Assembly (NCBI GenBank): GCA_023898465.1
Contig: CP060223.1
Coordinates: 96,001 to 160,000, forward strand
DNA length: 64,000 bases
Direction: 5' to 3'
From: Candidatus Nomurabacteria bacterium
GTDB taxonomy: Bacteria; Patescibacteriota; Patescibacteriia; HK-STAS-PATE-3
Positions within the stretch are counted from its first letter, which is position 1; every line of letters starts with the position of its first letter. Below are positions 3,626 through 63,896 of the stretch, piece by piece. The translations under genes were made by a program, and so were the position numbers. The notes beneath the pieces are model-generated. The model was not told the origin of the DNA, made no database searches, and was given only the letters and a program-made list of their open reading frames with translations.

Positions 3626-3663
3626 TCGCCAGCCCTGGGAACGCTGACGATTGCACATTCTTG

Positions 3664-3702: not shown

Positions 3703-3781
3703 GCTTTCTTTTACCTTGGCAGGATGGAAATGTAACTAGTCTTCAAGTTCTGATGTTTGTTGAAGCAATGTTTCGTAGGGC

Positions 3782-3810
3782 TTGACAAAATAGCACTTTT
3801 CCTGCTAAAG
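3782..3810 (+). promoter_or_regulatory. Sigma70-like promoter. Its -35 context gcTTGACAaaat is shared with the promoter at 7944.
   Basis: TTGACA at 3782 with a 17 nt spacer to cTAAAg. Confidence 0.4.
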
Positions 3811-4010
3811 TTCGCCGTTAACCAATGCGTAAAACCATCTAAAAAACGAACATTTTTACCACAACGACCTTAGTCGTTTGTGCTACTTATGGACATGAAT
3901 GGCTTGAGAAATGCCTAGCATTCCTCAACCGATTCTGGACCGGAAGTACTGCAGTAATTGTCATTCTTTGACAATTGAATTCAGAAGTCATTCTCACAGA
4001 GGAGGGTCTC

Positions 4011-5207: not shown

Positions 5208-5221
5208 AAGGGAGATTCCTG

Positions 5222-12792: not shown

Positions 12793-12867
12793 TGGCTCCG
12801 GGGACAGGGATCGAACCTGCGACCAAGTGGTTAACAGCCACCTGCTCTACCACTGAGCTACCCCGGA
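12793..12867 (-). tRNA. tRNA-Asn (anticodon GTT).
   Basis: Reverse complement TCCGGGGTAGCTCAGTGGTAGAGCAGGTGGCTGTTAACCAC...GGTTCGATCCC...CCCCGGAGCCA. Anticodon loop CTGTTAA. CCA is encoded. A promoter (TTGCCA, 17 nt spacer, TACACT) lies on the minus strand at 12883-12919. Confidence 0.9.
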
Positions 12868-24812: not shown

Positions 24813-24902
24813 TGGCGGAGAGGGGGAGATTCGAACTCCCGAAGGGCTTTCACCCTTACTTGCTTTCCAAGCAAGCGCACTAGGCCACTATGCGACCTCT
24901 CC
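24813..24902 (-). tRNA. tRNA-Ser (anticodon GGA), class II with a long variable arm.
   Basis: Reverse complement GGAGAGGTCGCATAGTGGCCTAGTGCGCTTGCTTGGAAAGCAAG-TAAGGGTGAAAGCCCTTC-GGGAGTTCGAATCTCCCCCTCTCCGCCA. Anticodon loop TTGGAAA. Confidence 0.9.
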
Positions 24903-28807: not shown

Positions 28808-29194
28808 ATGCCACGAGTCATTCATTTTGAAATTCATGCCAGTGATCCAGAACGAGCTGCGCAGTTTTATGCACGCGTTTTTGATTGGGATATACAGAAG
28901 TGGGATGGTCCAGAAGAGTACTGGCTAGTAAACACCGGTGCAGATACGCAAGCCGGTATCAATGGCGCAATTTTTAGGCGTCAGGGTGAATTAAGCCAGC
29001 ATGATGCGGTGATCGCCTTTGTGTGTACTATTGATGTGCCGAATGTTGATGCGTATATAGAGAAAGTGAAGCAACATGGTGGACATGTCGAATTGCAAAA
29101 AATGGCCGTGCCCGGAGTGGGCTGGATGGCATATTGCAAAGACACCGAAGGAAATATTTTTGGGATGATGCAAGCTGACCCGGAGGCAGTTTAA
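28808..29194 (+). CDS. VOC/glyoxalase-family protein.
   Basis: 128 aa, beta-alpha-beta(3)-like. FYARVFDW...GNIFG. Confidence 0.7.
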   Translation: MPRVIHFEIHASDPERAAQFYARVFDWDIQKWDGPEEYWLVNTGADTQAGINGAIFRRQGELSQHDAVIAFVCTIDVPNVDAYIEKVKQHGGHVELQKMAVPGVGWMAYCKDTEGNIFGMMQADPEAV

Positions 29195-29195
29195 G

Positions 29196-29774
29196 ATGCA
29201 ACACGAACTACTCGATATTATCAATGAAGAGGACGAGGTAATAGGCCAAGCAACTCGGCAAGAGTTGTATGATAAGGGCCTTACTTGTCGCATCGTGCAT
29301 GTGTTTGTGCAAAATAGCCAAGGCCAGTTTGCCATTCAGAAACGCAGTGAAGTGGTGAGCTTTCTCCCGGGCCACTGGAGCTCCTCGGCCAGTGGACATG
29401 TCAAAAAAGGCGAGTCATATGACGAAGCGGCTGCACGTGAACTGCAAGAAGAGTTAGGCATTGAAGCACCTTTAGAAAATGCCTTAACAACTTGGTACAC
29501 CGTGCCAGACCGAAATATCCGCCGTCGTATTGGCGTTTACCTTGCTAAGCACGAGGGACCTTTTGAGCTTGAGGCAATTGAAGTGGCTGAAGTTGTTTGG
29601 CATGAGCCTGAAGAAGTCTTAGCAATGGCCAAGAAAGGCGAGCCATTCCAACCGGAATTGGCAATTAGGAAATCATATTCACCCTATCGAAAGAGTATCT
29701 GGTCATTACATTGCTTTATTGCTCGTAATTGTCAGAAGGCAGGCGAACCACAATTGGACGGGGGAGAAAAATAG
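29196..29774 (+). CDS. NUDIX hydrolase. Its last ~39 aa are specified by the adjacent AT-rich insertion.
   Basis: Nudix box GHVKKGESYDEAAARELQEELGI. Nucleotide identity with the copy at 30595-31061 ends at 29659. Confidence 0.8.
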   Translation: MQHELLDIINEEDEVIGQATRQELYDKGLTCRIVHVFVQNSQGQFAIQKRSEVVSFLPGHWSSSASGHVKKGESYDEAAARELQEELGIEAPLENALTTWYTVPDRNIRRRIGVYLAKHEGPFELEAIEVAEVVWHEPEEVLAMAKKGEPFQPELAIRKSYSPYRKSIWSLHCFIARNCQKAGEPQLDGGEK

Positions 29775-49058: not shown

Positions 49059-50402
49059 TTAGAAGTAGTTGAACGGATTGGTGCGTCGGCCGTTTACCCA
49101 GACTTCGAAGTGCAGGTGGTCGCCAGTACACCAGCCAGTACAACCGGAAATGCCGATAGTTTCGCCCTTGCTCACTGTTTGGCCTACGCTGACATAGGAC
49201 TTGCTTAGGTGAGCATAGAGGGTTTGCAGACCATTACCGTGGTCGATGATGATGTTATTGCCGTAGCCAGTTCCCCAGTTTGTGCGGACAACTCGTCCTC
49301 CATCTGATGCATAAATAGGTGAGGTGCGAGTATGAATATCAATACCGGTGTGACGTGCGCTATAACCCTGGTTAATTTTGTGACTGACCGTAGGCCAGAA
49401 CATTCCAGCACCAACGTTGGTGGCGGAGGCTGGTCGAGGACCACTGCTGACGCTGCTGGCAACTTGAGTGGAACTAACAGTTGTTTTAGGCGCTGGAGGA
49501 GGTTCAATTTTACCGCCCGGAATGATGAGTTGCTGCCCAACTTCAATAGCACTTGCATCAGCCAATTGGTTAAACTCTAGGATATCATCAGCGTTTGCTT
49601 CGTACTTCTTTGCGAGCGATGCAATGGTATCGCCGCTTTGTACTGAGTGGACAACACCGCTGACCGGAGGGATTTTTAATGTTTGACCAGGCTTAATGAC
49701 TGAGGAGTCGTTAAGGTTATTTGCCCAGAGGAGCGTGTTGGTGCTGACAGAAAATTGTGAGGCAATGATACTGATAGTATCGCCACCCTCAACGACATAT
49801 TCACGGACCTGGTCGCGGGGCACTCCTAATTCGCTGGTGCTTGGGATATTTGCCTTGGCTAGCGCTTCACCACTTCCTTCATTTCGGGCGATAGCTAAGA
49901 GCTGACGCTGCTGTTCAGATTCCTCGGTATTTCGATGATAGCGGTCAATTGCTCCGTCGCGGGTGATTGAGCTCAGTGCAGAATTCGGCGCCACCACCGC
50001 GTACTCGACATATTCTTCGTCAGTTTCTTGATTATGCAGAATAGTATTTACTAAAGTGCCACTGGCAAAGTCTTCAATAGCGGCTTCTCGAGCTAATACA
50101 TTATTAGTAAGTACTCCGAAGATTACGACAATAACGACCACGTGAAGCAAATAGCGCGTGGTGATTGGATACCACCATGAGGACTTACTTCCGGCAAGAG
50201 ATTTCTCAAGCCGTTGGGTTACACGTAAATATTGTCGATAGATTGGAACTGCCAATACCATAAAGGTGGCATTCCAAAACCACGCCAGAGGTTTAAAAAT
50301 TCCGTAGATAACAATAAGCACGACCAACTTCCAAAGATAGCGGACGAGATGGTAGACGCCAAAAGCTAATTTGAGTACCTGCGATTTGAGCTGTAAACTC
50401 AC
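49059..50402 (-). CDS. M23-family metallopeptidase with two LysM domains and an N-terminal TM region.
   Basis: LysM motifs (GDTISIIASQFSV..., GDTIASLAKKYEA...). M23 HxxxD/HxH (GIDIH...GDHLHFEVW). Confidence 0.85.
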   Translation of the reverse strand: MSLQLKSQVLKLAFGVYHLVRYLWKLVVLIVIYGIFKPLAWFWNATFMVLAVPIYRQYLRVTQRLEKSLAGSKSSWWYPITTRYLLHVVVIVVIFGVLTNNVLAREAAIEDFASGTLVNTILHNQETDEEYVEYAVVAPNSALSSITRDGAIDRYHRNTEESEQQRQLLAIARNEGSGEALAKANIPSTSELGVPRDQVREYVVEGGDTISIIASQFSVSTNTLLWANNLNDSSVIKPGQTLKIPPVSGVVHSVQSGDTIASLAKKYEANADDILEFNQLADASAIEVGQQLIIPGGKIEPPPAPKTTVSSTQVASSVSSGPRPASATNVGAGMFWPTVSHKINQGYSARHTGIDIHTRTSPIYASDGGRVVRTNWGTGYGNNIIIDHGNGLQTLYAHLSKSYVSVGQTVSKGETIGISGCTGWCTGDHLHFEVWVNGRRTNPFNYF

Positions 50403-50613: not shown

Positions 50614-53600
50614 ATGAGTATGAAAAACGTTGTACCGGAAGGGGAATACAACCCAGCAAGTATTGAAGCAAAATGGCAGGAGCACTGGAACAAAAAACCA
50701 GATCAGGCTAAGGATTTTGCGCATGATCCAAAGCGCTATCTTCTCATTGAATTTCCTTACCCCTCAGGTGATGGACTGCATGTGGGGCATGTGCGAAGCT
50801 ATGCCGCTCTCGATGTGTTGGCGCGTTATTCTCGCTTAAAGGGTTTTAATGTGCTTTACCCCATCGGCTGGGATGCTTTTGGTTTACCCACCGAGAATTA
50901 TGCGATTAAGACTGGCGTACACCCACGTGTTGCGACTGATAAGAATATTGCCACCTTTCGCCGCCAGCTTAAGGCGCTAGGCCTTTCATTTGATTGGTCT
51001 CGAGAAGTGGATACAACAGATCCAAAATACTATCGATGGACACAGTGGATTTTTTTGCAGTTCTATAAGGCAGGCTTAGCCTATCAGGCAGAGATTCCTA
51101 TTAACTGGTGTCCAAAAGATAAAATCGGTTTGGCCAATGAAGAAGTGGTTGATGGCAAATGCGAACGCTGCGGCACTGAAGTAACGCGTAAAATGCAAAA
51201 GCAGTGGATGTTAAAAATCACCGCCTATGCAGATCGCTTACTACGTGATCTCGATACAGTTGAGTACGTTGAAAAAATTAAAACACAGCAGAAAAACTGG
51301 ATAGGTAAGAGCGAGGGTGCTGAAATATCTTTTCAAATAGCTAGTAAGGAGTCGCAAAAACCTCGCTTCGTACTTCTCCATGGTTTTCAGGGCTCAGCTA
51401 AAGGTAACTTTTTCCCATGGCTAAAAGATGAGTTGGTCGCAAAGGGCTATGAGGTGGAAGTACCTGAATTACCAAACAGCGCTCATCCGACTGAAGAGGA
51501 ACAGGTAAGTTATGTACTTGAACATTGTCGCTTTGATGAAAACACCATCGTGTTTGGTCATTCGCTTGGTACAGTCGTGGCCATGAAGGTTATAGAAAAG
51601 CTTCCCACAAAAGTAGCTGGCTTGGTTATGGCCGGTGGATTTACCCAGGCTGATTTTTCTGATCACGATCGACCATTCCGCGATACCTTTACATGGAATT
51701 TTGATTTCCAGGCGATTCGAGATAAAGCAGGTTTTATAAAAGTGCTACATGACGTGCATGATGATGCCGTGCCCGAGGGAGCTGGAGAGGCTTTAGCAAA
51801 AGCGCTCGAAGTGCCGTGCTACAAGGTGACCGCAAATGAAGAGCATTTCTGCGCAAAGCAAGAGCCTTATCTATTAGCGCATCTCATGCCAAACACACTT
51901 TTGGTTGGTACGCAAAATCAGGCAAAGGTGGAAATGCTTCGACGAGCATTGGCCCCTTACCCAAATATTCACCTCATCAGTTTAAGTGATATTGGTAAGG
52001 TCGATGATCAGGCTTTAGTAGAGGGCGATGACTTTCGTGCTAATGCAAAAATGAAAGCAGATTTTTATCACCGAGCCACAGGTTTACCAACCATATCGAC
52101 GGATCATATTCTTTGGATAGAGAAATGGCCTGAGGATAATGGCTTCATTACGCATATTCGCAAATTAGCAAATCCGAAATCTGGACGAGCAACAGATGAA
52201 GAACTAGCAGAATGGATAAAAAAATTTATCGATAAAAATGGTGAGTCGCGTACAGCCTTTCATTATGCTATTGGTTATGCCGATGAGAAGGGAGTGCAGG
52301 GCTTTGTGAGTATTCAGCGCGAATACATGTTGAAGGCTAATCCGGCTAAAGCACGATGGGAAGGCTATGCGGTCGGTGCATTTTTGCGTGACCCCGTGAC
52401 TGATGCGTATCGAGAAGAGATGCCCGCAGAGATCGCTTTTGATCGCTTCTTCGCCACAGTGCGCAATGAAATTGTGCCGCAGGTTTTCGATATGAGCACC
52501 TTGACGGTCTTTACCACACGACCCGATACCATCTTCGGTGTCACGTATATGGTTGTAGCCCCTGAACATGAACTCCTTGCCAAGTATCAATCACACATTA
52601 CAAATTGGGATGAAGTTCAAAAGTATGTGCGAGAGGCCGCCAAGAAATCCGATATGGAGCGGACCGAGTTGGCCAAAGAAAAAAGTGGCGTTGAGCTCAA
52701 AGGTATTCAGGCAGTAAATCCGGCAAATGGTGAAGTAATCCCGATTTGGGTAGCTGACTATGTGCTGAGTTCTTATGGCACCGGAGCGATAATGGCTGTG
52801 CCGGCGCATGATCAGCGAGACAATGAGTTTGCAAAAAAGTACTCCCTGCAAATAAGAGAAGTAGTAAGAGGTTTTAATCGTGTAGGAGAGAAAAAAGATA
52901 TTGTATATTCTGGCGAGGGGGTCCTAGTAAATTCTCAGGACTTTGATGGAGAAAAAAGCGAAGACGCAAAAAAGAACATTGTAAGGTGGTTAGAAGAAAA
53001 AGGACTCGGTCATTCAGCAGTCAATTTTAAACTTCGCGACTGGGTATTTTCACGTCAGCACTACTGGGGCGAGCCGATTCCGATTATTCATTGTCCTAAG
53101 TGCGGAGCTGTTCCAGTGCCGGAGAAAGACCTACCAGTGGAATTGCCTCATGTAGAAAAATACCAACCCACTAATACTGGGGCTTCACCATTAGCTGCGA
53201 TCGAGGATTGGGTGCAGGTGAAATGTCCGAAGTGTAAGGGCGAAGCGAGTCGAGAAACCGACACCATGCCGAATTGGGCCGGGAGCTCGTGGTATTTCCT
53301 GCGCTATTCGGATCCGCACAATAGTAAAGCCTTTGCTGATAAGAAAAAGCTAGAGTATTGGCTGCCGGTGGATATTTACAATGGTGGCAATGAGCACACC
53401 ACCCTCCATTTACTCTACTCGCGTTTCTGGCATAAGTTTTTATTTGATCAGGGCTTGGTACCAACTCCAGAACCATACCAGCATCGTCATTCGCATGGGA
53501 TTGTGTTAGCTGAGGATAATCGCAAGATGTCAAAGAGTTGGGGGAACGTGGTCAATCCGGATGATTATGTGCAGGAGTACGGTGCAGATAGCGTGCGCAT

Positions 53601-54198
53601 GTACGAGTTATTTATGGGACCATTTGAGGATATGATTCCGTGGTCAACCAAGGGTATCGTGGGTGTGCATCGCTTCTTAAATCGTGTGTGGGAACTTTAT
53701 CGTAAAGTTACAGAAGAGACGGCCCAAGTAACAGAAGAGAGGGACATTCACAAAGCTGTGAAAAAGGTTGGGGAAGACCTCGAGGCTTTTCGTTTCAACA
53801 CCGCGGTGAGCACTTTGATGGAATATTTTAATCACTTCCGTGATGAAGTGCAGCAGGGTAGGCTCGATAAAGAAGCAGCAGAAAAGTTTCTCGTGATCCT
53901 TTTCCCATTTGCGCCGCACCTTGCCTCAGAGCTCTGGGAGCAGTTAGGAAAGAAGAGCGATATTCGCGAACAATCATGGCCAAACTTTGATCCAAACGCT
54001 TTACAAGCGGAGACCGTCACGATCGGTGTGCAGATTAATGGCAAAGTGCGCGCCTCCATAAGCCTTTCACCAGAAGCAAGCGAAGCAGAAGCGCTGGAGC
54101 TAGCCTTAGCCGAAGAAAATATTCAACGCTATCTTCAAAAGGGACAGCCCAAGAAGGTTATTTATCGTGCAGGAAAAATTCTCAATCTGATCGCCTGA
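50614..54198 (+). CDS. leuS: Leucyl-tRNA synthetase carrying a ~385 aa insertion (YdeN/RBBP9-like serine hydrolase plus Ham1/ITPase-like domain) at about aa 243-627, nt 51340-52495.
   Basis: HIGH (HVGHVRSY), KMSKS, CP1 editing domain TTRPDTIFGVTYMVVAPEH, C-terminal tRNA-binding domain. The insertion lies between KNWIGKSEGAEISF and TVFTTRPDT, where E. coli LeuRS has about 9 aa. Confidence 0.93.
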   Translation: MSMKNVVPEGEYNPASIEAKWQEHWNKKPDQAKDFAHDPKRYLLIEFPYPSGDGLHVGHVRSYAALDVLARYSRLKGFNVLYPIGWDAFGLPTENYAIKTGVHPRVATDKNIATFRRQLKALGLSFDWSREVDTTDPKYYRWTQWIFLQFYKAGLAYQAEIPINWCPKDKIGLANEEVVDGKCERCGTEVTRKMQKQWMLKITAYADRLLRDLDTVEYVEKIKTQQKNWIGKSEGAEISFQIASKESQKPRFVLLHGFQGSAKGNFFPWLKDELVAKGYEVEVPELPNSAHPTEEEQVSYVLEHCRFDENTIVFGHSLGTVVAMKVIEKLPTKVAGLVMAGGFTQADFSDHDRPFRDTFTWNFDFQAIRDKAGFIKVLHDVHDDAVPEGAGEALAKALEVPCYKVTANEEHFCAKQEPYLLAHLMPNTLLVGTQNQAKVEMLRRALAPYPNIHLISLSDIGKVDDQALVEGDDFRANAKMKADFYHRATGLPTISTDHILWIEKWPEDNGFITHIRKLANPKSGRATDEELAEWIKKFIDKNGESRTAFHYAIGYADEKGVQGFVSIQREYMLKANPAKARWEGYAVGAFLRDPVTDAYREEMPAEIAFDRFFATVRNEIVPQVFDMSTLTVFTTRPDTIFGVTYMVVAPEHELLAKYQSHITNWDEVQKYVREAAKKSDMERTELAKEKSGVELKGIQAVNPANGEVIPIWVADYVLSSYGTGAIMAVPAHDQRDNEFAKKYSLQIREVVRGFNRVGEKKDIVYSGEGVLVNSQDFDGEKSEDAKKNIVRWLEEKGLGHSAVNFKLRDWVFSRQHYWGEPIPIIHCPKCGAVPVPEKDLPVELPHVEKYQPTNTGASPLAAIEDWVQVKCPKCKGEASRETDTMPNWAGSSWYFLRYSDPHNSKAFADKKKLEYWLPVDIYNGGNEHTTLHLLYSRFWHKFLFDQGLVPTPEPYQHRHSHGIVLAEDNRKMSKSWGNVVNPDDYVQEYGADSVRMYELFMGPFEDMIPWSTKGIVGVHRFLNRVWELYRKVTEETAQVTEERDIHKAVKKVGEDLEAFRFNTAVSTLMEYFNHFRDEVQQGRLDKEAAEKFLVILFPFAPHLASELWEQLGKKSDIREQSWPNFDPNALQAETVTIGVQINGKVRASISLSPEASEAEALELALAEENIQRYLQKGQPKKVIYRAGKILNLIA

Positions 54199-55385
54199 TG
54201 TCACATCATTTTCCACATACGCAAAGTTTAGAGTATTCGCTTCGACGAGAAGTGACCGAAATTTATCTCAGCGTGACAATCAAGCACTTTGGCTTGGCGC
54301 TTTTGTCAGTCTTCGAGGTCATTTATCTTTTCGAGTGGTTTGGATCTTCTCTAGCTTTATTGCTCTTATTCTACGGCATGAATTATGTGCTGCACGCGCT
54401 TTTTACTCCTTTTGCTGCCATGCTCGTAAATCGGATTGGCGTGAAAAAGAGTATCCTCCTGGCCAATCCATTTATTATACTGTTTTTCGTTTCATTACTT
54501 TTTCTACCTAGCTGGCCCTGGTTAATTATTCCTGCATTACTCAGTATCGCGATTTATCACGCGATTTTTTGGTTGGCCTTTCACATTGATTTTTCGCGAT
54601 TTGCCAATCCAGAGCACCGAGGTCGGCAGACGAGCATGCTCCTTGCTATACCAATGATTGCGCACGCCATTGGGCCTTTGCTCGGGGGCTTTCTTATTAC
54701 AGAGTTCGGCTTCTCAGTGCTTTTTCTCGTTGTCATTATTTGTTTAGGAGTTTCCGTTCTTCCGCTTTTCTTTTCTCGAGAGGTACATGAGCCATTTCAC
54801 TTACACTGGCGACAGACTTTTCACTACGCTTTTTCTTTTCGTCATTGGCGCCGGAATCTTGTTTTTATAGGCGATGGCATTAGCGGAAAGATTAGCGTTG
54901 TTGTGTGGCCGGTTTTTCTTTTTCTCGCCATTACAAATTTTGTTGACTTAGGTGTTATTAATTCCGTAGCCTTTTTACTCACGCTATTGATGGGTTTATA
55001 TATTGGACATTTGACTGATTCGCCACGTCGCCGAGTGGTTTTGACTCTTGGGGCAATTTTTACTTCCTTTGGCTGGCTTGCCCGAATTTTACTCAAAACA
55101 CCTTGGCAACTTTTTGCCTTTGACGCATATGGTCGGGTTTCTCGCCGGATCATTGATGTACCCTATAATGCACTTTTTTATAAAAGCGCCTATGAACATG
55201 GCGAAAATAAAGCAGCTTTTATTGCTTCCTACGAAATAGTAACAAATCTTTTCGGTGGATTTTTCCTTATTCTCCTCGCGGCATTAGCAAATATGGTGGA
55301 TCCCTTTATTGCCGCTTTTGTTACCGCTGGTATTTTTACGGCCTTTTTCCCAATTATGCCTGACAGTAATAAGAAGGAAAAATAA
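54198..55385 (+). CDS. MFS-type transporter.
   Basis: About 12 TM helices. ATG overlaps the leuS stop (ATGA). Confidence 0.6.
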   Translation: MSHHFPHTQSLEYSLRREVTEIYLSVTIKHFGLALLSVFEVIYLFEWFGSSLALLLLFYGMNYVLHALFTPFAAMLVNRIGVKKSILLANPFIILFFVSLLFLPSWPWLIIPALLSIAIYHAIFWLAFHIDFSRFANPEHRGRQTSMLLAIPMIAHAIGPLLGGFLITEFGFSVLFLVVIICLGVSVLPLFFSREVHEPFHLHWRQTFHYAFSFRHWRRNLVFIGDGISGKISVVVWPVFLFLAITNFVDLGVINSVAFLLTLLMGLYIGHLTDSPRRRVVLTLGAIFTSFGWLARILLKTPWQLFAFDAYGRVSRRIIDVPYNALFYKSAYEHGENKAAFIASYEIVTNLFGGFFLILLAALANMVDPFIAAFVTAGIFTAFFPIMPDSNKKEK

Positions 55386-55999
55386 TGCGACGCTTGCTAA
55401 TCCATGACCCAGAAGCATTATCTACTGCTGTTCGTGCGCTCAAAAACGGACAACTTATTATCTATCCTACTGACACTGCCTATGCTATTGGCGCAGATGC
55501 GACAAATGCGGCGGCTGTCCGGGCAGTCCAACAAGTGAAACAGCGTAGCGAGGCAAAACCACTTCCATTAATTGCTGCTGATAGTGCCCAAGTTGCTCAG
55601 GTGGCTATTTTACACCCTGATGAAGAGCTGCTGGCGAAGAAACATTGGCCCGGTCCGCTCAGCCTCTTACTTGACCGGAAAGGTGGATTACCAGAAGAAG
55701 TCACGTTAGGCCTGCCAAAAGTAGCCATTCGAGTACCACATATGCCGTTTGCTCGTGAGTTAGCCTTGCGACTCGGTCATCCAGTTGTGGCAACTTCAGC
55801 AAATATGGCTGGCATGGGCCCAAAGTATGATCCTGATGAGGTGCTGCATGAGCTAGTAAATAATAACCACAGCCCGGTCGTACTGATAGACGGAGGAGTA
55901 TTAGCAGAAGTACCGCCCTCAACCATTGCGGAGTGCCATAACGGAGAAGTGAAGATACATCGTCAGGGGCCAATTGTGATCCCGGGCGCCACAATATGA
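55385..55999 (+). CDS. tsaC: L-threonylcarbamoyladenylate synthase (YrdC/Sua5 family).
   Basis: LIIYPTDTAYAIGADATNAAAV...KPLPLIAAD motif set. Confidence 0.8.
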   Translation: MRRLLIHDPEALSTAVRALKNGQLIIYPTDTAYAIGADATNAAAVRAVQQVKQRSEAKPLPLIAADSAQVAQVAILHPDEELLAKKHWPGPLSLLLDRKGGLPEEVTLGLPKVAIRVPHMPFARELALRLGHPVVATSANMAGMGPKYDPDEVLHELVNNNHSPVVLIDGGVLAEVPPSTIAECHNGEVKIHRQGPIVIPGATI

Positions 56000-56823
56000 G
56001 CGTGTATTCGCCAACTCAGTTGCAAGCCCTTTGCCGTCAATTTGGCATACGGCCTCAGCGACGTCGCGGGCAAAACTTTGTTATTGATCAACATTTGATT
56101 GATCGTATGCTGCAAGCGGCTGAAATAGACTCCGAGCATCCGATATTAGAAATTGGGCCGGGTTTTGGCGTTTTAACAGAAGCATTAGTGCAAAAAGCGT
56201 CTCAGGTAATAGCAATTGAACTAGAAAAAAAGCTAGCTGAACATTTGCAAAAGCGTTTTTCTTCCCAAAAAAATTTGACCATAGTGCAGAATGATTTTCG
56301 TTTTACTGATCTTGCTGCGCTGGGTCTCCAAGAGGCGGCATATGATGTAGTGGCTAATTTGCCGTATCAAATAACCTCCTTAGTTATTCGGCGTTTATGT
56401 AGCACGCATCCTCGTCCACGTCGTATCACCCTGCTCGTGCAAAAAGAAGTAGCTGAAAGGATTATTGCGCCATCAGGAGAGGCAAGCACGTTAAGTATTG
56501 CGGTGGCTTTTTATGCTCAGGCAAAGCTGGTCAGAACCGTTTCTCCGGCAGCTTTTTGGCCGCGGCCTCAGGTGAAATCAGCTATTCTGCGTCTTGATTT
56601 GCATAGTACCATTCCAAATGTTGACGAAAAACGCTTTTTCTCCATTGTGCGTTCGGCCTTTCAAGGTAAGCGCAAAAAATTGCGCAATTCACTTGCTTCA
56701 GTACTCGGAGTTGAACCAATAAAAGTCGAGGAAATATTGAGAAAACAGGGTATAAATCCAGAAGTACGAGCTCAAGATCTCTCACTTGAGAACTGGTTGA
56801 CAATCGCACAAGAAAAGCTTTGA
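55996..56823 (+). CDS. rsmA: 16S rRNA (adenine1518/1519-N6)-dimethyltransferase.
   Basis: GQNFVIDQHLIDRM...ILEIGPGFGVLTEAL SAM motif. Confidence 0.9.
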   Translation: MSVYSPTQLQALCRQFGIRPQRRRGQNFVIDQHLIDRMLQAAEIDSEHPILEIGPGFGVLTEALVQKASQVIAIELEKKLAEHLQKRFSSQKNLTIVQNDFRFTDLAALGLQEAAYDVVANLPYQITSLVIRRLCSTHPRPRRITLLVQKEVAERIIAPSGEASTLSIAVAFYAQAKLVRTVSPAAFWPRPQVKSAILRLDLHSTIPNVDEKRFFSIVRSAFQGKRKKLRNSLASVLGVEPIKVEEILRKQGINPEVRAQDLSLENWLTIAQEKL

Positions 56824-56886: not shown

Positions 56887-57759
56887 TTGGCTTTTCAGGG
56901 GGAACAACCAGGGGAGAATGACAATACAAAGCTTTTCAATAATGCCCCAGAGCAAGGTAATCAGGTTCCGCCTGAGCAAAGTGGCTCGCGGGGCTTTTTT
57001 ATTGCGTTAATTTCCTTTGGCGCAGTTGGGCTTTTGCTCGGAATTGTGAGCTTGGCAAAGAATATTCAGTCACCTTTTGTACCAAATGCCAACCTCATTG
57101 CGGTGCAGCAGGACACCAATCAAGAAAACATCTCTGATTTGCAGCAAAGAGACACGGATGGAGATGGGTTAAGTGATTACGAAGAACTTTATCAATACAA
57201 CACTAGCCCGTATTTAGCTGATTCTGACTCGGATACCATTGATGATAAGAAAGAAATCGAGAGTGGAAACGATCCGAATTGTCCAAGTGGCCAGGATTGT
57301 ACCGGATTAGGCGTAAATACAAACACGAGTACAGTTGACGATGCATTGGGGCTTACTAATAGCTCCACCAATACATCCGCGACAAATACCAGTACGAGCA
57401 CGAGTGCGGTTGATATGGCACAGTTGCGTGAAGTGTTAAAGGCCTCGGGTGCTCCTGCCTACGTCGTGGATTCAACCGATGATGCTACTTTGCTTGAGCT
57501 TTACAACGAATTAGTAGCTGAGCAGGGTGGTGACTCGCTTGATACCAACTCGACAGATACAAATGCGAGTAACACGTCGACTGTTGATGACGCTACCACC
57601 TTACAACTTCTGCAAAGCTTATCAGCCAGCGAGATACGCGCACTTCTCATTCAAAGTGGCGTTGATCAATCATTAATCGATCAAGTAGACGATTCTGAGC
57701 TGCAGCAAATATTCCTTGATGCAGTGCAATCCGAGTTTTCCTCTGACTCCTCATCATGA
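56887..57759 (+). CDS. Secreted/anchored acidic Ser/Thr/Asp-rich protein with a thrombospondin-type-3-like Ca-binding repeat.
   Basis: TTG start. TM FFIALISFGAVGLLLGIV. DTDGDGLSDYEELYQYNTSPYLADSDSDTIDD. Confidence 0.5.
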   Translation: MAFQGEQPGENDNTKLFNNAPEQGNQVPPEQSGSRGFFIALISFGAVGLLLGIVSLAKNIQSPFVPNANLIAVQQDTNQENISDLQQRDTDGDGLSDYEELYQYNTSPYLADSDSDTIDDKKEIESGNDPNCPSGQDCTGLGVNTNTSTVDDALGLTNSSTNTSATNTSTSTSAVDMAQLREVLKASGAPAYVVDSTDDATLLELYNELVAEQGGDSLDTNSTDTNASNTSTVDDATTLQLLQSLSASEIRALLIQSGVDQSLIDQVDDSELQQIFLDAVQSEFSSDSSS

Positions 57760-60700
57760 TTCTGCCTTCTGAGCAATCAAAGAAGAAAAAGAGCGTGCGA
57801 GCAATCGCTAGTTTTCTGTTGCCAATGGTTTTACTGGTGACAGTGTTGGGAGTTGCCTTACCACGAGAAAGCAAAGCTCAAATTGGCGCAGTTGGCAGTT
57901 TGGCGGGATTTATTTGGAAGGAAGTAAAAGATTCAGCCCGTTATATTGCCACGCAGGCAAAAGCTGCTTTTGAAAAAGCTCAGGATACCAGTTACGCCAT
58001 TGCGTTTAAGAATAGCTTACGAGTTTTCTTAGGTAAGGTGGCAGAAGATACCGCCGTGTGGGTTTCCAGTGCCGGGACGGGCCAAAAGCCGCTCTTCATC
58101 ACTGATCCGCATTATTGGCGAAATTTGACCGATGCGGCTGGCGGCGACTTTTTGGATTCTATTTCCAAAGATGTTTTTGGAGTAAGTCTGTGTGAGCCGC
58201 TCGATGTGCAAAAGAAGGTTCAACTAGAAATTGCCACCCGCAATCTTATCAATCCTTTAAACGTGTGTGAGAACAGTTGTAACACGACATACAACAATAC
58301 AGCCGAGCAGCTAGGGAACATGAAATCGTATCTTGATCTTCAAGAACGTAAATCACAAGCAAGTCCGAATGCGCTTACCTATTGTCCTGATGAAGAGTTT
58401 CTGCTTGGCATTAGCACTCCAGACAATCCGAATGATCCCTCAACCTATGGCACACAGATGTCAGAGCTTGAGTGTTTTCAACTCATCTCAAACAACTACA
58501 ATCGTCGAAGGCAGCAGGCGACTTCAGAATTGACCTCATGTTTGCAAGATTGTAATCGCGGATCTCGTAAGTCATCCTGTACCGCAACCGCAGTATGGGG
58601 AAACATTCGAGACATTCAGGATTTCTCAGTAGAATTTCAAACTTACTTTAAGCCTGAGCAAAATGATATTGGTCAGATTCTTACCCTTTTCGGCTTGACT
58701 CAGCAAGCAGAAGAAGAGGCGAAGATTGCCGAAGAGACAATTCAGAATAGTAAGTTAGGCGCGGTAACTTCAACGCTTCGTACAGACATCCTTACCCCGG
58801 CCAGCTTGGTAGAAGAAAAAGCAGCCCAGCCTATTCGAGAGTCTTCAACAATTGATACTACGCAAACCGGATCCTTACTCGCTGATGTGGGTAATATTTT
58901 TGCGAACACCTTAACGCAGCGTTTAATGGAGAGATTCTTCCGCAGTAAGTGTGGATTAAATCCAAGCGCATGCGAGGGCCCAGGCCAAACAGACTCCAAA
59001 CTCGGCTCCTTACTCTTTAGCACACGGACTCCAAGCGGTCTGGCAGCTGCGCGACTCCAGTTCGCCAGCTTAGCTCGAATCGATTACACAACAGGAGATC
59101 CAGGTCGTTCACAAATAGCAGTATCAAATCAATTAGAAGCGCAAGGTATAATTAATTCCGGTTTCCGACAGGCTATTGATGAGCACATGACAGTGCGAGA
59201 AGCGTTGAACGCCGGCTTGCTAAATGCCAGCGCAACCTTTGGCTACGACGAAACAGACAATGAAGCGGAAAATGGAATTCCATACCGCTCCATCCTTTAT
59301 CTGCGTAAATATCGAGTCGTCCCTGTTGGCTGGGAGTTGGCCGCTGTGTATATCGGTTCAGATGCAGATAGACAGTCACATGGCTTAGGCGAACTCGTCG
59401 ACCTCTATGATTGGTGTGGACAGGACGCTGCACATGGTTTACCAAATCCAGATGATCCAGAGACACCATTGCCTTCACCATTCTGCGGATTGGTTGACCC
59501 GAGTTGGGTATTAAAAGCTCCTGACACGTACTGTCGACGTCAGGGCGCTGGTGATGAAATTATCCAACGTCGCTATGTGTGTGACACTGATACCAATGGC
59601 GATGGTCGAATTAATTGTAGCCTGAGCGATTTGGGTGGAGGGGATATTGGCTCCTGGATTATTTCACGAAATCAAGATACCTGCGTTGATGAGCCTAGCT
59701 GTGTGGCCGAAGATAGTGATGGGAATTGTCTCGCCTATGGATATTGCTATGAAGAAAAGCCGATTTGGCGTTTCGGCGGTGAAACCTGTAACGGGTACTA
59801 TGCTTCTTGTCGATCTTATACAAATTCAAGTGGCATTCAACTCGCTTACTTAAAAGATACCCTTGATGAGGGCGATTGTAATCCAGAGAATGCCGGTTGT
59901 CGCGCGTACTGCAGCGATGGCGAATACAATGCCGTAAATCAGACCTGGAGTTGTCGCTCTGATTCAGGTGATACTATATACTTTGATCGGGACGCGAGCT
60001 CATGTCCAGATGGTGCGGTTGGATGTACTGAATTAATTCGCACCGAAGCTGGATCAAACGTTTTAGCAAACGCTGGATTTGAATACTATACAGGTACCAG
60101 CGATGACGGCACTCGAGATACTTTTGGCTTCTGCAGTAATAATGGCGCTGCCTGTCAAACCAATGGAGACTGTGGACTCGGGGCAAGTTGTGAAGGTTGG
60201 AAAACTGATAACGGTGCCGTCCAACTACAAGCAGTCAGCGATGATGTGAGTGGCGTTGGTTCACCAGACACCATTGCAGTGCAAATGAGCGCCGGGGTTG
60301 GCAAGCTCATTCACGAAGCTGATGCCTATCAAGATTTGAGCGGCATGCAGATGACTTTCTCATACTACGCAAAAGCGCTTGGAGCAAGTTGTAGCGGCAC
60401 CTTTGGCGTACAAAGCGCTGATGCAATTTATGTGCCAGCCGCTGATGAAGAGGGTAGCGCTGAGTACACCGATCTCTGGCAGCAATATGCTGGAGTCTTC
60501 ACCTTCCCAGAATCAGCTTATACTAAGAGTAAGGTGCAGGCGTACATAAATAATCCGGGCTGCGGTATTTTGGTTGACTCAGCTAAATTAGAATTTAGTG
60601 CTGCGCAAACAGTGTACTCGGATTATCAGACGGTGAATGAAATTTCCATGCAAGTTCCACAGACCACTCTGCTGTCCAACGGAGACTTCAGCTTAGATGA

Positions 60701-63700
60701 TGGAACTGACTTCTTTAGCTACCCAGCCCCAGTTGATGGAGATAACTCTACCGCAGATGACAATATTCCAGACGGCTGGACACCACGAGCAGTAGGAAGT
60801 ATCGCAATTGATCGCACGCAAGGCCACTTTGATGATGAATCACTTCGGATTGACGCTAGTGGAGTGCGTAGCTATGCGGGCCAGCTTGTTCCAGTTGAAC
60901 AAGGTAAAACCTATGAAGTGAGCGGTTGGGTAAAGAGTCAATTGACTCCAAGTGGTGGTGATACTCCATTTGGCGCACTCATGACCGAATGTGTGTACAG
61001 TGCCAGCCATCCAAATGCTTACGAAACATTTAATCCTTCGGCTGATGAGCCAAGCGAGTGTCTCTTGTCTAACTTCGAAACCTACATTCGTCCTTCAGTT
61101 GAAGACGGTAACAATTATTATGTAACAACTGGGACGAGCGACTGGACTTATCTCCGCTATACCGTGACCGCAAATAATCCTGATATCGGCTTTATGCGAG
61201 TTGCTTGTACAAATGTGTCTCAGGATACAGGAGGCATTCAAGCTGATGGTTCTGGTACGGTTTGGTGTGATGATGTGAAGGTGGTGGAAACTCCACTAAG
61301 TTGTGACCGCGAAGAAGTTGGTTGTCAAAAATATCGACCAGTTGGGGCTGGTGATGCCGTAAATGGCGTAGTGCGTTCCAGCGACATTTGTCCGCTTGAT
61401 CAGGTTGGTTGCCGCCAATTCCGTGAAATGCCGATTGAACATGTGCCTCAGCGTGATGGCATTGATCCAGTCTACATTATTGAAAGTTCGGGAAACCAAT
61501 GTACAGCTGCCAGTGTGGGTTGTGAGGAATACACTAACCTTGACCTGGGTGAGTCAGGCGGAGAAGCCTTAGCGTACTTCTCACAAATTAAACAGTGTGT
61601 GAAGCCGACAGATCCAAACGCAGGTAACTTCTATACTTGGGAAGGTAGCGAACAAGCTGGTTATAACCTTCGTGCATACAAACTTCTCACGAGTAATGTT
61701 GATCAAGGTCCATGTACAAATCTTTCGGTCGGTACAACTACCAGCGATCCAATCTGTGAAGACGATAGCAATCCAATCGCTGAGTGTAGTGTGGATGACC
61801 TAGGCGTGAACCCTGATTGTACTGAATACTTTAACGATTCCGGCGAAGTCTTTTATCGCTTGAAGAGTCGAACAGTCACCGTCTCCAATGATTGTCACCC
61901 ATTCCGTAATTCAATTGACGCAGCTGCAGGTGAGGATAGTGTGTATCACGTGATTCCGAGCGAAGCAGTCACTTGTTCCGCCGCTGCAGCTGGTTGTCGT
62001 CAGTACAAGGGAACAACTGCAGATAGTAGCCGTACCGTCTACAATGAGAATTTTGAAAACGGCTCGGTGAACGGTTGGAGTGGGGGCGTGACCTATTCAA
62101 ATGAGTCAGTTAACTTAGGCGGTCACTCCATGCGCACGAGCGACGACACTCTTTTCTCAATCGATCTCTCAAACACCATTACTAACGGCCGAACCTACAG
62201 TATTCAGTTCTCCTATAAGGCTCGGCAGACCGGTGACCTAGCCTTTCAAATTCGCGATGAGCTAGGCGAGAGCTTTGGCAGCACGGTAGCTATTCGGCCG
62301 GGTGAAGAATGGGCGCAGTATGAGCTCGGACCAGTCTTTGTGAATTCAACCGGCGACCCGACCGAGTTTATCTTAGAATTTACCACTCCTTCAAGCCTAC
62401 CAGGCGGGTGGATCGATAATATTAAATTACGCGAATCAGTTGACAGTATTTATCGTATCAAGGGTACGACCTCGTCCTGTGATCCAGCAAATGCCGGATG
62501 TCGCCTCTATGTTGATAGCGCAAATAGCCCGGTGGCAGTTACCTCATTTAGTCATCTCTGCTCTGATCGGGCAGTCGGCTGTGAGGCAATGACAGTGACG
62601 CAAAATTCAGATTATCCTTTTGTGCAGGATGTACAAGATAATCCTGATAAGTTTATTCAAGGTGATCTGACTCTCGCGTATGTAAACTCCTCAAGCGCTT
62701 ATTGTCGGGCAGAGTACCAGGGCTGTACTGAGTATGGCGTTGCTTCCTATGATCAAAATAATGAAGTACTTGCATGGTCAAGCACGAATTTGATTAATGA
62801 TCCAGACACTTATCCGGTAGCACTTTGTCATCCGAGTCAGAATCGCTGTGAAGAGTACACCGAGAGTATTAGTGGCAGTAAGGCCTATTTCCGCGATCCA
62901 GGCAATCAAACCTGTGAATATCGTGAATCAGCTGCCTATGCTGGATTATTAGTAGACGGTTGGTTTATCACGGGCACAAATGAGCCATGTCCATCACAGT
63001 CGTTGACTTGCTTCGGCGGCACTCTGGCTGGTGAACCGTGTATGACGTCGGATCAGCAGCAAGCTTGTCTAAACAATAATGGCTACTGTATCGCCTATCC
63101 ATTAGACGGAGAAGTGAAAGAGGTAAATCTTATCTGTGGTTCAACCTGTTCAACTGGTGGATCAGTTGGTCAGGCTTGTGTGAATAATGGTCAATGCTCG
63201 AATGTGTGTGTAGGCGGCACGAATGCTGGTGCATCTTGTCTACGCAATGATGATTGTGGTGGAGGTGGTACCTGTGAGATAGGGCAGTGCGGTGATGGTG
63301 GTGTGCGGCCTTTCTGTGATGGTCGTCAAACCGGATCAACTCGACAAGATCAGGAAAATTGTTTGGCTGATGATGGGCTCTGTACGGCCATTCCTCAGGT
63401 AGGTCAGCCAGGGCGAACCTGTCAGGGTGGTCCAAACGACGGCCTGTCTTGTGCCAATGATGCATACTGTTCCAGTGTTTGTGCTGGTGGTACAAATGCT
63501 GATAACGCTTGCTTTAACGATAGCGATTGTCCAGGGAGTACCTGTGGCGTGGAAGCGAGTTGTGCAAATTACTGGGTTGGCACCTGCGAGCCGGCCGCTG
63601 CGGGATGTACGGAATTCCGTGACCCTCTTGATCCGCCGCAACAAGGAGCCTATCCAAATGGTTGTCAGGTGAATTGTACGCTGGCCACTGACCGTAATGA

Positions 63701-63896
63701 TAATCTCATTGAGGTAGATGCTGAGTGTCGACCTGGCTCAACAGCAGCGTCACAACCTGGCTGTCAGCCTTACTACATCTTGCGGCAAAGTATTACTTCG
63801 CAAGTTTCCGAATGTAATTCAACTATTGATTTCACTACCGGGTGTCAGCCATTCTATGACACCGCTAATCCAAATGCTAATTTTATAGGGGGTTAA
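57756..63896 (+). CDS. Giant (2046 aa) secreted Cys-rich protein with a reiterated C-x4-GC-x2-[YF] motif and at least two CBM/galactose-binding-like beta-sandwich domains.
   Basis: Signal/TM at the N-terminus. More than 10 copies of the motif (CDREEVGCQKY, CPLDQVGCRQF, CTAASVGCEEY, CSAAAAGCRQY, CDPANAGCRLY, CSDRAVGCEAM, CPDGAVGCTEL, CNPENAGCRAY...). CBM-like segments around nt 60050-60900 and 62040-62430. Cys-dense C-terminal 350 aa. Confidence 0.85.
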   Translation: MILPSEQSKKKKSVRAIASFLLPMVLLVTVLGVALPRESKAQIGAVGSLAGFIWKEVKDSARYIATQAKAAFEKAQDTSYAIAFKNSLRVFLGKVAEDTAVWVSSAGTGQKPLFITDPHYWRNLTDAAGGDFLDSISKDVFGVSLCEPLDVQKKVQLEIATRNLINPLNVCENSCNTTYNNTAEQLGNMKSYLDLQERKSQASPNALTYCPDEEFLLGISTPDNPNDPSTYGTQMSELECFQLISNNYNRRRQQATSELTSCLQDCNRGSRKSSCTATAVWGNIRDIQDFSVEFQTYFKPEQNDIGQILTLFGLTQQAEEEAKIAEETIQNSKLGAVTSTLRTDILTPASLVEEKAAQPIRESSTIDTTQTGSLLADVGNIFANTLTQRLMERFFRSKCGLNPSACEGPGQTDSKLGSLLFSTRTPSGLAAARLQFASLARIDYTTGDPGRSQIAVSNQLEAQGIINSGFRQAIDEHMTVREALNAGLLNASATFGYDETDNEAENGIPYRSILYLRKYRVVPVGWELAAVYIGSDADRQSHGLGELVDLYDWCGQDAAHGLPNPDDPETPLPSPFCGLVDPSWVLKAPDTYCRRQGAGDEIIQRRYVCDTDTNGDGRINCSLSDLGGGDIGSWIISRNQDTCVDEPSCVAEDSDGNCLAYGYCYEEKPIWRFGGETCNGYYASCRSYTNSSGIQLAYLKDTLDEGDCNPENAGCRAYCSDGEYNAVNQTWSCRSDSGDTIYFDRDASSCPDGAVGCTELIRTEAGSNVLANAGFEYYTGTSDDGTRDTFGFCSNNGAACQTNGDCGLGASCEGWKTDNGAVQLQAVSDDVSGVGSPDTIAVQMSAGVGKLIHEADAYQDLSGMQMTFSYYAKALGASCSGTFGVQSADAIYVPAADEEGSAEYTDLWQQYAGVFTFPESAYTKSKVQAYINNPGCGILVDSAKLEFSAAQTVYSDYQTVNEISMQVPQTTLLSNGDFSLDDGTDFFSYPAPVDGDNSTADDNIPDGWTPRAVGSIAIDRTQGHFDDESLRIDASGVRSYAGQLVPVEQGKTYEVSGWVKSQLTPSGGDTPFGALMTECVYSASHPNAYETFNPSADEPSECLLSNFETYIRPSVEDGNNYYVTTGTSDWTYLRYTVTANNPDIGFMRVACTNVSQDTGGIQADGSGTVWCDDVKVVETPLSCDREEVGCQKYRPVGAGDAVNGVVRSSDICPLDQVGCRQFREMPIEHVPQRDGIDPVYIIESSGNQCTAASVGCEEYTNLDLGESGGEALAYFSQIKQCVKPTDPNAGNFYTWEGSEQAGYNLRAYKLLTSNVDQGPCTNLSVGTTTSDPICEDDSNPIAECSVDDLGVNPDCTEYFNDSGEVFYRLKSRTVTVSNDCHPFRNSIDAAAGEDSVYHVIPSEAVTCSAAAAGCRQYKGTTADSSRTVYNENFENGSVNGWSGGVTYSNESVNLGGHSMRTSDDTLFSIDLSNTITNGRTYSIQFSYKARQTGDLAFQIRDELGESFGSTVAIRPGEEWAQYELGPVFVNSTGDPTEFILEFTTPSSLPGGWIDNIKLRESVDSIYRIKGTTSSCDPANAGCRLYVDSANSPVAVTSFSHLCSDRAVGCEAMTVTQNSDYPFVQDVQDNPDKFIQGDLTLAYVNSSSAYCRAEYQGCTEYGVASYDQNNEVLAWSSTNLINDPDTYPVALCHPSQNRCEEYTESISGSKAYFRDPGNQTCEYRESAAYAGLLVDGWFITGTNEPCPSQSLTCFGGTLAGEPCMTSDQQQACLNNNGYCIAYPLDGEVKEVNLICGSTCSTGGSVGQACVNNGQCSNVCVGGTNAGASCLRNDDCGGGGTCEIGQCGDGGVRPFCDGRQTGSTRQDQENCLADDGLCTAIPQVGQPGRTCQGGPNDGLSCANDAYCSSVCAGGTNADNACFNDSDCPGSTCGVEASCANYWVGTCEPAAAGCTEFRDPLDPPQQGAYPNGCQVNCTLATDRNDNLIEVDAECRPGSTAASQPGCQPYYILRQSITSQVSECNSTIDFTTGCQPFYDTANPNANFIGG

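Follow-up and report, generated by a model that had tools for sequence, protein, structure and literature searches.

We analysed a stretch of 64,000 nucleotides from a Candidatus Nomurabacteria bacterium (contig CP060223.1, positions 96,001 to 160,000), hereafter the window, in which the leuS gene for leucyl-tRNA synthetase (LeuRS) carries a cassette of two hydrolase domains nested in frame inside the CP1 editing domain. The first is a serine hydrolase of the YdeN/RBBP9 family, and the second is a divergent relative of the Ham1/RdgB pyrophosphatases. We have very little doubt that this architecture is authentic. The best overall explanation is that the cassette is dedicated to LeuRS and serves as a tethered clean-up partner of the enzyme, a reading to which we assign a probability of about 0.55. 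Nucleotide positions refer to the window, and residues to the LeuRS protein unless stated otherwise.

The LeuRS gene and the position of the insert

The leuS open reading frame (ORF) is free of stop codons along all 1194 codons, insert included, and neither the GC content nor the skew changes across the proposed insert. The bacterial LeuRS model TIGR00396 (leuS_bact) is matched with 1014.3 bits against a cutoff of 548.4, in two pieces that lie on either side of the insert. Likewise, the Thermus thermophilus LeuRS (1h3n) aligns to residues 11-251 and 630-1193 (E = 3.9e-232), and since the alignment splits into two blocks, about 380 residues are placed between T. thermophilus residues ~241 and 243. 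In the LeuRS hidden Markov model (HMM), the positions that flank the insert are 243 and then 242. A preliminary description, made from the sequence alone, had proposed an in-frame insertion of roughly 385 residues before CP1. The continuous ORF and the split 1h3n and TIGR00396 alignments bear out an insertion of about 380 residues near the start of CP1, but its placement before that domain has to be amended, as the insert is located inside the first CP1 beta-hairpin. This is indicated by the editing domain model PF13603 (205 bits), which matches in two stretches with only its positions 18-185 after the insert, and by the 1h3n alignment, which places a strand before it. This first strand aligns to SEGAEILFPVEGKE in the T. 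thermophilus enzyme and is predicted as a strand (residues 232-244) in the AlphaFold model. The junctions fall in the turn of the hairpin, in the context 'AEISFQIAS...insert...LTVFTTRPDT', where the insert starts with K-P-R-F and ends with V-F-D-M, followed by S.

Apart from the insert, the window LeuRS is collinear with canonical bacterial LeuRS, including the anticodon-binding and C-terminal domains. The HIGH and KMSKS motifs and the editing residues are invariant or nearly so (Table 1), in agreement with the earlier statement that the rest of the enzyme is canonical and complete. In the Thr-rich editing motif, T634, R636 and T639 are invariant among 112 aligned LeuRS, while F633, T635 and D638 are conserved in at least 90%. 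Neither the synthetic site nor the editing site of CP1 shows any sign of damage, and judged by its full set of motifs the host is probably a working bacterial-type LeuRS.

The serine hydrolase domain

When the insert alone was searched, PF06821 (Ser_hydrolase) was matched with 32.6 bits against a cutoff of 22. The first domain aligned to Bacillus subtilis YdeN (1uxo) with E = 2.5e-16 and to human RBBP9 with E = 1.3e-7. In the full-length AlphaFold model it has a predicted local distance difference test score (pLDDT) above 90, a beta-alpha-beta topology and the strand-helix pattern of alpha/beta-hydrolases. Ser317 is placed at an elbow between a strand (311-316) and a helix (318-329), and Ser317, Asp383 and His411 follow the model strands 311-316, 375-380 and 402-405, which are the canonical positions of a catalytic triad. 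Asp383 aligns with the second Asp of 'STDDP' in RBBP9, which is D138 by residue count of the sequence. We know of no substrate of YdeN, and none was found in the literature searched.

The Ham1-like domain

The second domain matched PF01725 (Ham1p_like) with 27.5-28.8 bits against a cutoff of 22.5, a modest margin; 23 of 28 members of the Ham1-like family matched the same model, the best of them with E = 8.2e-23. We used two alignments of the family, one of embedded and free Ham1-like relatives (A2) and one of the window-type subfamily (A4). The A2 profile retrieved solved Ham1 structures from the PDB (3tqu, E = 2.8e-14; 6wwd, 1.7e-13; Escherichia coli RdgB 1k7k, 6e-12, nearly full length). An AlphaFold model of the domain alone had a pLDDT of 96.3 and a predicted template modelling score (pTM) of 0.88, and a Foldseek search of the PDB with this model returned Ham1, RdgB or ITPA structures as all of its top 32 matches, the best being Staphylococcus aureus Ham1 with a template modelling (TM) score of 0.78. 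Maf proteins ranked only below these 32.

Both domain assignments had been made in the preliminary description, and both pass the curated Pfam thresholds, with additional support from the 1uxo match for the first domain and from the profile and Foldseek matches for the second. The coordinates given there, 51355-51890 and 51895-52490, match the limits found here (residues 250-425 and 430-625). The replacement of the catalytic DDSGL by STDHIL is also real by alignment to the canonical enzymes. Residues T496-D497 align with the D-D pair, such that the first acidic residue has become Thr and S-G has become H-I, while the second Asp is kept. D497, which is D68 in the numbering of the domain, is invariant in both A2 and A4. 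In the same numbering, N6, N48, K52, Y56, D68, R87 and G114 are invariant among the embedded and free members of A2, T4, K9, G42 and A49 are conserved in at least 90% of them, and E41 is invariant in A4. The key residues of the domain in protein numbering are T433, N435, K438, E470, N477, K481, Y485, D497 and R516.

Table 1. Features of the leuS locus, with positions in the window.
Feature	Position	Strand	Basis or conservation
Divergent LysM/M23 peptidase gene	49059..50402	-	Synteny marker common to L005, L011 and L002
leuS ORF, bacterial-type LeuRS holding the insert	50614..54198	+	1194 aa plus stop
HIGH motif, H56-V-G-H59	50779..50790	+	H56, G58, H59 invariant in 112 aligned LeuRS
First CP1 beta-strand, aa 232-247, SEGAEISFQIAS	51307..51354	+	N-side of the interrupted hairpin
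In-frame two-hydrolase insert, aa 248-627	51355..52494	+	Gap between LeuRS HMM matches
YdeN/RBBP9-family alpha/beta serine hydrolase, aa 250-425	51361..51888	+	PF06821, 1uxo, model
Ser317 codon, putative nucleophile in G-H-S-L-G	51562..51564	+	Ser in 103/103 embedded copies
Asp383 codon, putative triad acid	51760..51762	+	D or E in 99/103 embedded copies
His411 codon, putative triad histidine (E-E-H-F)	51844..51846	+	His in 98/103, others gaps
Divergent Ham1/RdgB (ITPase-fold) domain, aa 430-625	51901..52488	+	PF01725, profile, model, Foldseek
S495-T-D-H-I-L500, counterpart of A-D-D-S-G-L	52096..52113	+	Alignment to 3tqu/6wwd
Remainder of CP1 editing domain, aa 628-794	52495..52995	+	PF13603 positions 18-185 = aa 626-794
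Thr-rich editing motif, F633-T-T-R-P-D-T639	52510..52530	+	Begins six residues past the insert
Editing site, H732-D-Q-R-D736	52807..52821	+	D733, R735, D736 invariant in 112 LeuRS
KMSKS motif, K971-S975	53524..53538	+	K971, S973, K974 invariant; M972, S975 at least 90% in 112 LeuRS

Authenticity of the architecture

The same gene with the same neighbours was assembled from two separate sequencing runs, SRR12358675 and SRR12358676, and these contigs are 99.99% identical to the window. They therefore represent the same population and support the continuity of the gene rather than providing an evolutionary replicate. A search for orthologs recovered the same insertion in two divergent genomes. 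In the first (L011, GCA_030699685.1; JAUYLJ010000065.1, positions 2251-6015), an uninterrupted ORF of ~1240-1254 aa holds the tandem cassette in the same hairpin, and the gene order, ComM, LysM/M23, leuS, major facilitator superfamily (MFS) transporter, Sua5 and KsgA, is that of the window. The second (P0012, GCA_039739875.1) has the same tandem arrangement. Identities to the window in the N-terminal LeuRS part, the serine hydrolase, the Ham1-like domain and the C-terminal LeuRS part were 76, 56, 66 and 62% for L011, and 66, 34, 42 and 56% for P0012. All 13 catalytic or invariant residues that we checked were kept in the three proteins, and only G543 varied.

The recorded gene call in L011 (P0124) covers 1004 aa and begins at an internal ATG inside the cassette. 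We attribute this to the unusual architecture, which misled the annotation so that the N-terminal catalytic part of LeuRS was left out. A split LeuRS was considered for P0124 and rejected, since the gene call is shortened and the ORF is continuous.

Such a gene could in principle arise if separate genes had been joined in a chimeric assembly, or if a mobile or intein-like element that is excised or has no function had inserted. A free-standing cassette does exist beside leuS in a relative, one ortholog has the internal start in its gene call, and one low-coverage contig in our collection is probably chimeric. Against this stand three assemblies with the same sequence, the two divergent genomes that preserve architecture, reading frame and residues, and thirty further embedded examples in metagenomes. 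Pfam searches up to E = 1 gave no Hint, intein or endonuclease family among the matches, the insert lacks a Cys/Ser start and a His-Asn end, there are no terminal repeats at its boundaries, and no shift in composition was seen. We therefore reject the intein, the transposon and the assembly chimera, and regard an artefact or selfish element of any kind as hardly credible. For the first of these the result agrees with the earlier view that the insert is not an intein, and a mis-assembly, named there as a finding that could overturn the architecture, is excluded by two identical assemblies of the same population together with the two divergent orthologs.

The low-coverage contig (L013; ENA ERZ4902888, NODE_71419, coverage 1.09, positions 58-843) holds a LeuRS fragment with a Ham1-like domain in the same CP1 hairpin. 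The fragment runs straight into a sequence resembling class II aminoacyl-tRNA synthetases (PF00152, P0132), which was rejected as a real fusion, as the contig is most likely chimeric. The locus L012 (P0130) was uninformative.

Association of the cassette with leuS

To examine the distribution of the Ham1-like half, we searched 1.84 billion cluster representatives with HMMER and obtained 206 matches with E <= 1e-3, 9 of which had E <= 1e-30. The close matches were either embedded in LeuRS (P0124, P0126, P0127, P0129, P0133 and P0003) or free proteins of ~200-405 aa. One of the latter, P0125, is a free 405-aa protein with both a Ser_hydrolase domain (PF06821, 61.5 bits) and a Ham1 domain (PF01725, 41.6 bits), found on two contigs (L005 and L006). 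Its gene is located between a LysM/M23 gene and a leuS gene that starts 41 nt downstream. The LysM/M23 gene is 53% identical to the gene upstream of the window leuS, for which the assignment comes from Pfam matches on the orthologous genes. The LeuRS beside P0125 has an N-terminus that is 75% identical to that of the window enzyme, the closest found, and a hairpin that is uninterrupted (AEIDFQILGSESKIKVFTTRPDT), and P0125 itself is collinear with residues 248-624 of the window protein at 35% identity over 395 aa. A free Ham1-like gene is also found 25 nt before the gene of an insert-free LeuRS of 787 aa (P0128), and another, P0131, precedes an insert-free leuS by 12 nt.

A metagenome scan with the subfamily profile yielded 39 loci, 34 of which had at least 39% identity. 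Thirty of these close loci are embedded in a LeuRS ORF, at the hairpin or at a second site just before it, and another two form an ORF of their own immediately before leuS; the remaining two are cut by contig ends, and none is demonstrably unlinked to leuS. The five distant matches (28-37% identity) stand alone, on loci that contain no LeuRS, and the distant relative P0135 does not adjoin leuS; its downstream ORF looks MazG-like by reading of the sequence. Free PF06821 proteins are common in genomes of the candidate phyla radiation (CPR) and of DPANN, where they generally do not adjoin leuS. A scan of genome contigs with the insert gave one locus, a free YdeN-like gene from Uhrbacteria, and a word-index search with the whole insert was of low sensitivity and recovered 3 relatives only; the full-length LeuRS query was far more informative.

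The near restriction of the Ham1-like subfamily to the inside or the direct upstream side of leuS indicates that the cassette was a pre-existing, LeuRS-dedicated partner, and the free upstream gene in the syntenic closest relative indicates that this partner was later covalently tethered. A dedicated functional link of the cassette to LeuRS is thus well supported, and the evidence from gene neighbourhoods favours a role that is coupled to LeuRS. The preliminary description had offered proofreading or metabolite clearing and a moonlighting fusion as possible functions. In this second reading, the hydrolases could be ordinary house-cleaning enzymes that the tiny CPR genomes have parked in an essential, constitutively expressed gene, sharing expression with LeuRS but having no chemical or physical interplay with aminoacylation. 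Such moonlighting or co-expression would fit the abundance of PF06821 as free proteins of ~185 aa in CPR and DPANN, some of which are not near leuS (L001, P0299), the distant free Ham1-like relatives that are unlinked to leuS and fused to NUDIX, GNAT or AAA_33 domains, and the existence of some close LeuRS without any module. It leaves unexplained, however, why all 32 metagenome loci that could be determined show the window-type Ham1-like domain linked to leuS, why all three free close relatives with readable loci (P0125, P0128 and P0131) adjoin leuS, and why a free cassette occurs immediately upstream of leuS in a syntenic relative. We consider this alternative unlikely, though it deserves to be kept in mind.

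Some observations on the free relatives are recorded here. The fusions to NUDIX, a GNAT acetyltransferase and an AAA_33 kinase-like domain are found in P0148, P0211 and P0251, respectively, and four other Ham1-like relatives (P0138, P0145, P0151 and P0182) are extended at the N-terminus by 100-315 aa for which Pfam gave no match. A 177-aa ORF without Pfam match lies 3 nt upstream of P0128 on a contig of JGI 3300050046, and a 194-aa ORF, also without Pfam match, overlaps the end of the free serine hydrolase gene P0275 on a contig of JGI 3300075153. These two ORFs may represent partner domains encoded as separate genes.

Hydrolase modules in other LeuRS

To place the window enzyme among its relatives, we collected the best 120 homologs of the full-length LeuRS. 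Where named, these belong to Pacebacteria, Doudnabacteria, Taylorbacteria or Patescibacteria, and most are oversized, with precomputed matches to PF06821, PF00293 (NUDIX) and/or PF01725. Inserts were located against a LeuRS profile derived from five members that have none, and the modules were classified with coverage filters. Serine hydrolase, Ham1-like and/or NUDIX modules were present in 116 of the 121 nearest LeuRS, all from CPR, and only 5 of the 121 full-length proteins were insert-free. The modules occupy about four hot spots: site A (profile position ~212, after 'DLD'), site B (~243, the first CP1 hairpin), site C (~368), which we take to be a surface loop of CP1, and site D (~445), presumably the second zinc-binding region. 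That the same three module types recur in CP1-proximal loops of nearly all neighbouring LeuRS is likewise left unexplained by moonlighting.

Site B most often held a serine hydrolase (84 cases), followed by a Ham1-like domain (17) and the tandem (3). NUDIX modules were located at site C (47) or site A (6), two Ham1-like domains were placed at site A, and seven serine hydrolases at site D. The commonest architectures were a serine hydrolase at B alone (48) and a serine hydrolase at B together with NUDIX at C (25). A consensus that resembles the Nudix box, 'GG.E.GE.....A.RE..EETGY', is retained in these embedded modules. The distribution of architectures is patchy relative to the identity of the LeuRS core: the window's nearest cores, at 65-70% identity, bear a serine hydrolase at B with NUDIX at C, a Ham1-like domain at B with a serine hydrolase at C, NUDIX only, or nothing. 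The tandem of the window is therefore a rare combination within a common and fast-shuffling theme. Two metagenomic LeuRS (L031 and L032) carry the tandem reversed in the same CP1 hairpin, with the Ham1-like domain preceding the serine hydrolase, so the order of the domains is not fixed. As for the earlier suggestion that the architecture is undescribed, we too found no description of it in the literature searched, but it is not a one-off, being a rare combination in a large family of CPR LeuRS.

At site C, where its nearest core relatives bear a NUDIX module, the window LeuRS has none. A free-standing NUDIX gene is present elsewhere in the window (29169-29771, + strand; PF00293, 66.7 bits), and its product is weakly similar to the embedded NUDIX modules (15 bits with a local profile). 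Other CPR LeuRS carry further domain types (P0054, 1722 aa; P0116; P0034; P0099; P0074, 1558 aa), among them HAD-like PF13419, methyltransferase PF13489, PF13366 and a 571-aa N-terminal extension that matches none of the three profiles; the module kit thus comprises more than three types. An insert of ~128-130 aa that matches neither the serine hydrolase, the Ham1-like nor the NUDIX profile recurs at site D in P0042, P0094 and P0111.

Proposed role of the cassette

The LeuRS chain exits CP1 at the tip of the first hairpin, folds into an alpha/beta serine hydrolase (Ser317-Asp383-His411), continues straight into a Ham1/ITPase-fold domain (K438, E470, K481, D497 and R516) and re-enters CP1 afterwards, a pre-existing partner protein having become covalently tethered to LeuRS. 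We propose that the serine hydrolase would cleave an acyl bond (ester, anhydride or amide) and the Ham1-like domain the phosphoanhydride bond of a nucleotide-type compound. Placed beside LeuRS, the two could form a clean-up station that complements the tRNA-dependent editing by CP1. Candidate targets would be errors or poisons of LeuRS, such as misactivated aminoacyl-adenylates, mischarged products, non-canonical ATP analogues or aminoacyl-nucleotide antimetabolites.

Several findings weigh against this proposal. With the CP1 editing site fully intact, the need for additional proofreading is not obvious. The aminopeptidase RBBP9 depends on a free alpha-amine in its substrate, which is anchored by S76, Y99 and E108 (PMC8866121). 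Among the 103 embedded copies of the serine hydrolase these anchors are not kept, the corresponding positions being Leu (83/103), Phe/Ala/Pro and a non-conserved loop, respectively. Neither an aminoacyl-specific activity nor the aromatic aminopeptidase specificity of RBBP9 can therefore be carried over to the first domain, and we rejected such a transfer. In the full-length AlphaFold model the Ham1-like domain has a pLDDT below 50. Its first acidic residue of DDSGL is lost, the A2 alignment shows no recognisable C-terminal SHR, with 'FDR' in the corresponding region of the window protein by alignment alone, and the RdgB equivalog TIGR00042 is far from reached (19.3 bits against a cutoff of 145.35). 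Finally, the site (A-D), order and combination of the modules vary, with a quick turnover on the LeuRS tree. Such variation speaks against an exact geometric coupling of the modules to the active sites of LeuRS and keeps the moonlighting explanation alive; it also argues for a loose tethering of the cassette rather than an integrated active site.

The changes in the Ham1-like domain, with SG replaced by HI in addition to the lost Asp, raise the question of whether it is a pseudoenzyme. The domain, and perhaps also the hydrolase, could be non-catalytic and act as a nucleotide sensor or as a structural, tRNA-binding or partner-binding regulator of LeuRS. The PRK14822 model was not reached either (30.9 bits against a cutoff of 234), a single-sequence search of the PDB with the Ham1-like half reached no solved Ham1 (RdgB, E = 1.7), and conserved ligand-binding residues would fit a sensor as well as an enzyme. 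On the other hand, embedded and free members alike keep the Lys/Lys/Arg set, the Glu and the second Asp with little or no variation, and the Ser-Asp-His triad of the first domain is conserved in ~100 copies. In RdgB the triphosphate is bound by K13, K53 and R87, and in Maf enzymes, which share this fold, one Asp serves as the general base (PMC3899018). The former correspond to K9, K52 and R87 of the domain (K438, K481 and R516 of the protein), and because a single Asp suffices in Maf enzymes, the loss of the first Asp need not abolish the chemistry. Moreover, the motif 'S/A-x-D' is common to the whole subfamily, including the free members, and the alteration is a family trait and not a sign of decay. 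A pseudoenzyme or scaffold thus appears quite improbable, and from their conserved residues both domains of the insert are probably catalytically active.

Returning to the reading of the cassette as a tethered partner dedicated to LeuRS, its specific part in clean-up or proofreading is advanced here only tentatively. In a similarly speculative vein, CPR (Patescibacteria) may hold an unrecognised LeuRS-dedicated hydrolase kit that consists of YdeN-type serine hydrolases, Ham1-like pyrophosphatases and NUDIX domains, each either encoded just upstream of leuS or built into a loop near CP1. If so, the kit would be a new layer of quality control in aminoacylation or a means of self-protection against antibiotics that mimic aminoacyl-adenylates, with cleavage of the aminoacyl bond falling to the serine hydrolase and breakdown of the nucleotide part to the pyrophosphatases. 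It would be functionally analogous to trans-editing factors and to microcin-C-type detoxifying enzymes, and different from these in fold.

Aminoacyl-tRNA synthetases are among the best-studied enzymes, and CP1 of LeuRS is a textbook editing domain and a drug target. Complete and apparently active hydrolases nested in CP1 would be unexpected, as would the presence of the same three types of hydrolase in the majority of LeuRS from a vast uncultured bacterial radiation and the alternation of one cassette between an upstream gene and an in-frame insert. Should the modules act on substrates, products or inhibitors of LeuRS, they would represent a new kind of proofreading or self-protection and give the YdeN/RBBP9 family and the divergent Ham1 branch their first physiological context. 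Should they have no role in LeuRS function, they would still illustrate strikingly how reduced genomes nest domains and rapidly shuffle modules. The findings also carry a warning for annotation: the names given to genes of this type range from LeuRS to 'class I tRNA ligase family protein' and 'alpha/beta fold hydrolase', an internal ATG was wrongly taken as the start of at least one of them, and the sequences are public but have gone unremarked.

Other features of the window

Downstream of leuS, genes for an MFS transporter, Sua5/TsaC and KsgA/RsmA follow on the same strand (54198-56823, +) with overlapping stop and start codons. Sua5/TsaC belongs to the threonylcarbamoyl-AMP synthase family and KsgA/RsmA was named from a reading of sequence motifs; both are RNA-modification enzymes, and the order leuS-MFS-Sua5-KsgA is kept in L011. 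Rfam searches gave no leader or T-box 5' of leuS, and the only matches in the window were two tRNA genes (12796-12867 and 24816-24902, both on the - strand). Further downstream, a 290-aa ORF (56887-57759), in which a bacterial TSP3 repeat falls just under the Pfam cutoff (24.9 against 25 bits), precedes a 2046-aa ORF (57756-63896, +). The latter has a single CBM_4_9 domain (residues 1427-1547) as its only Pfam match and is probably a large surface protein.

Comparison with known systems

The window LeuRS has all domains and motifs in common with canonical bacterial LeuRS (T. thermophilus 1H3N/2BYT; the E. coli 4AQ7 family), from which it differs by two additional enzyme folds, ~380 residues in all, placed at the tip of the first hairpin of CP1. 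No LeuRS with such an insert was found among solved structures in a PDB search or among the curated models of NCBIfam, where the matches listed included no model for a LeuRS with hydrolase modules, and a literature search directed at the architecture, which included a check of Meheust 2019, found no published description of such hydrolase inserts.

Like YdeN (1UXO) and RBBP9 (2QS9), the first domain is a minimal alpha/beta hydrolase of ~175-190 aa with G-x-S-x-G, Asp and His; unlike them, it is nested in another protein and does not conserve the amine anchors of RBBP9. The second domain shares the fold of RdgB, Ham1 and ITPA (PF01725; 1K7K, 3TQU, 4BNQ), with TM scores of up to 0.78, and their T-x-N-x-x-K, Glu, N-A-x-x-K, second Asp and Arg, whereas the Thr in place of the first acid, the change from S-G to H-I and the physical tie to leuS set it apart as a distinct subfamily. 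P0125 contains the same two domains in the same order and gene neighbourhood as the window cassette, but is a separate polypeptide with a serine hydrolase of a different subtype (AVIVHGSPSKPKYP).

A parallel in another synthetase is the isoleucyl-tRNA synthetase with an N-acetyltransferase (NCBIfam NF040702, ileS_w_GNAT), which is also a class Ia synthetase with an extra domain that modifies small molecules. The synthetase and the class of the added enzyme are different, and the window protein reaches 67.6 bits with this model against a cutoff of 1999. Hydrolases that are embedded in LeuRS or adjoin its gene are apparently a widespread and hitherto undescribed habit of the leuS genes of CPR.

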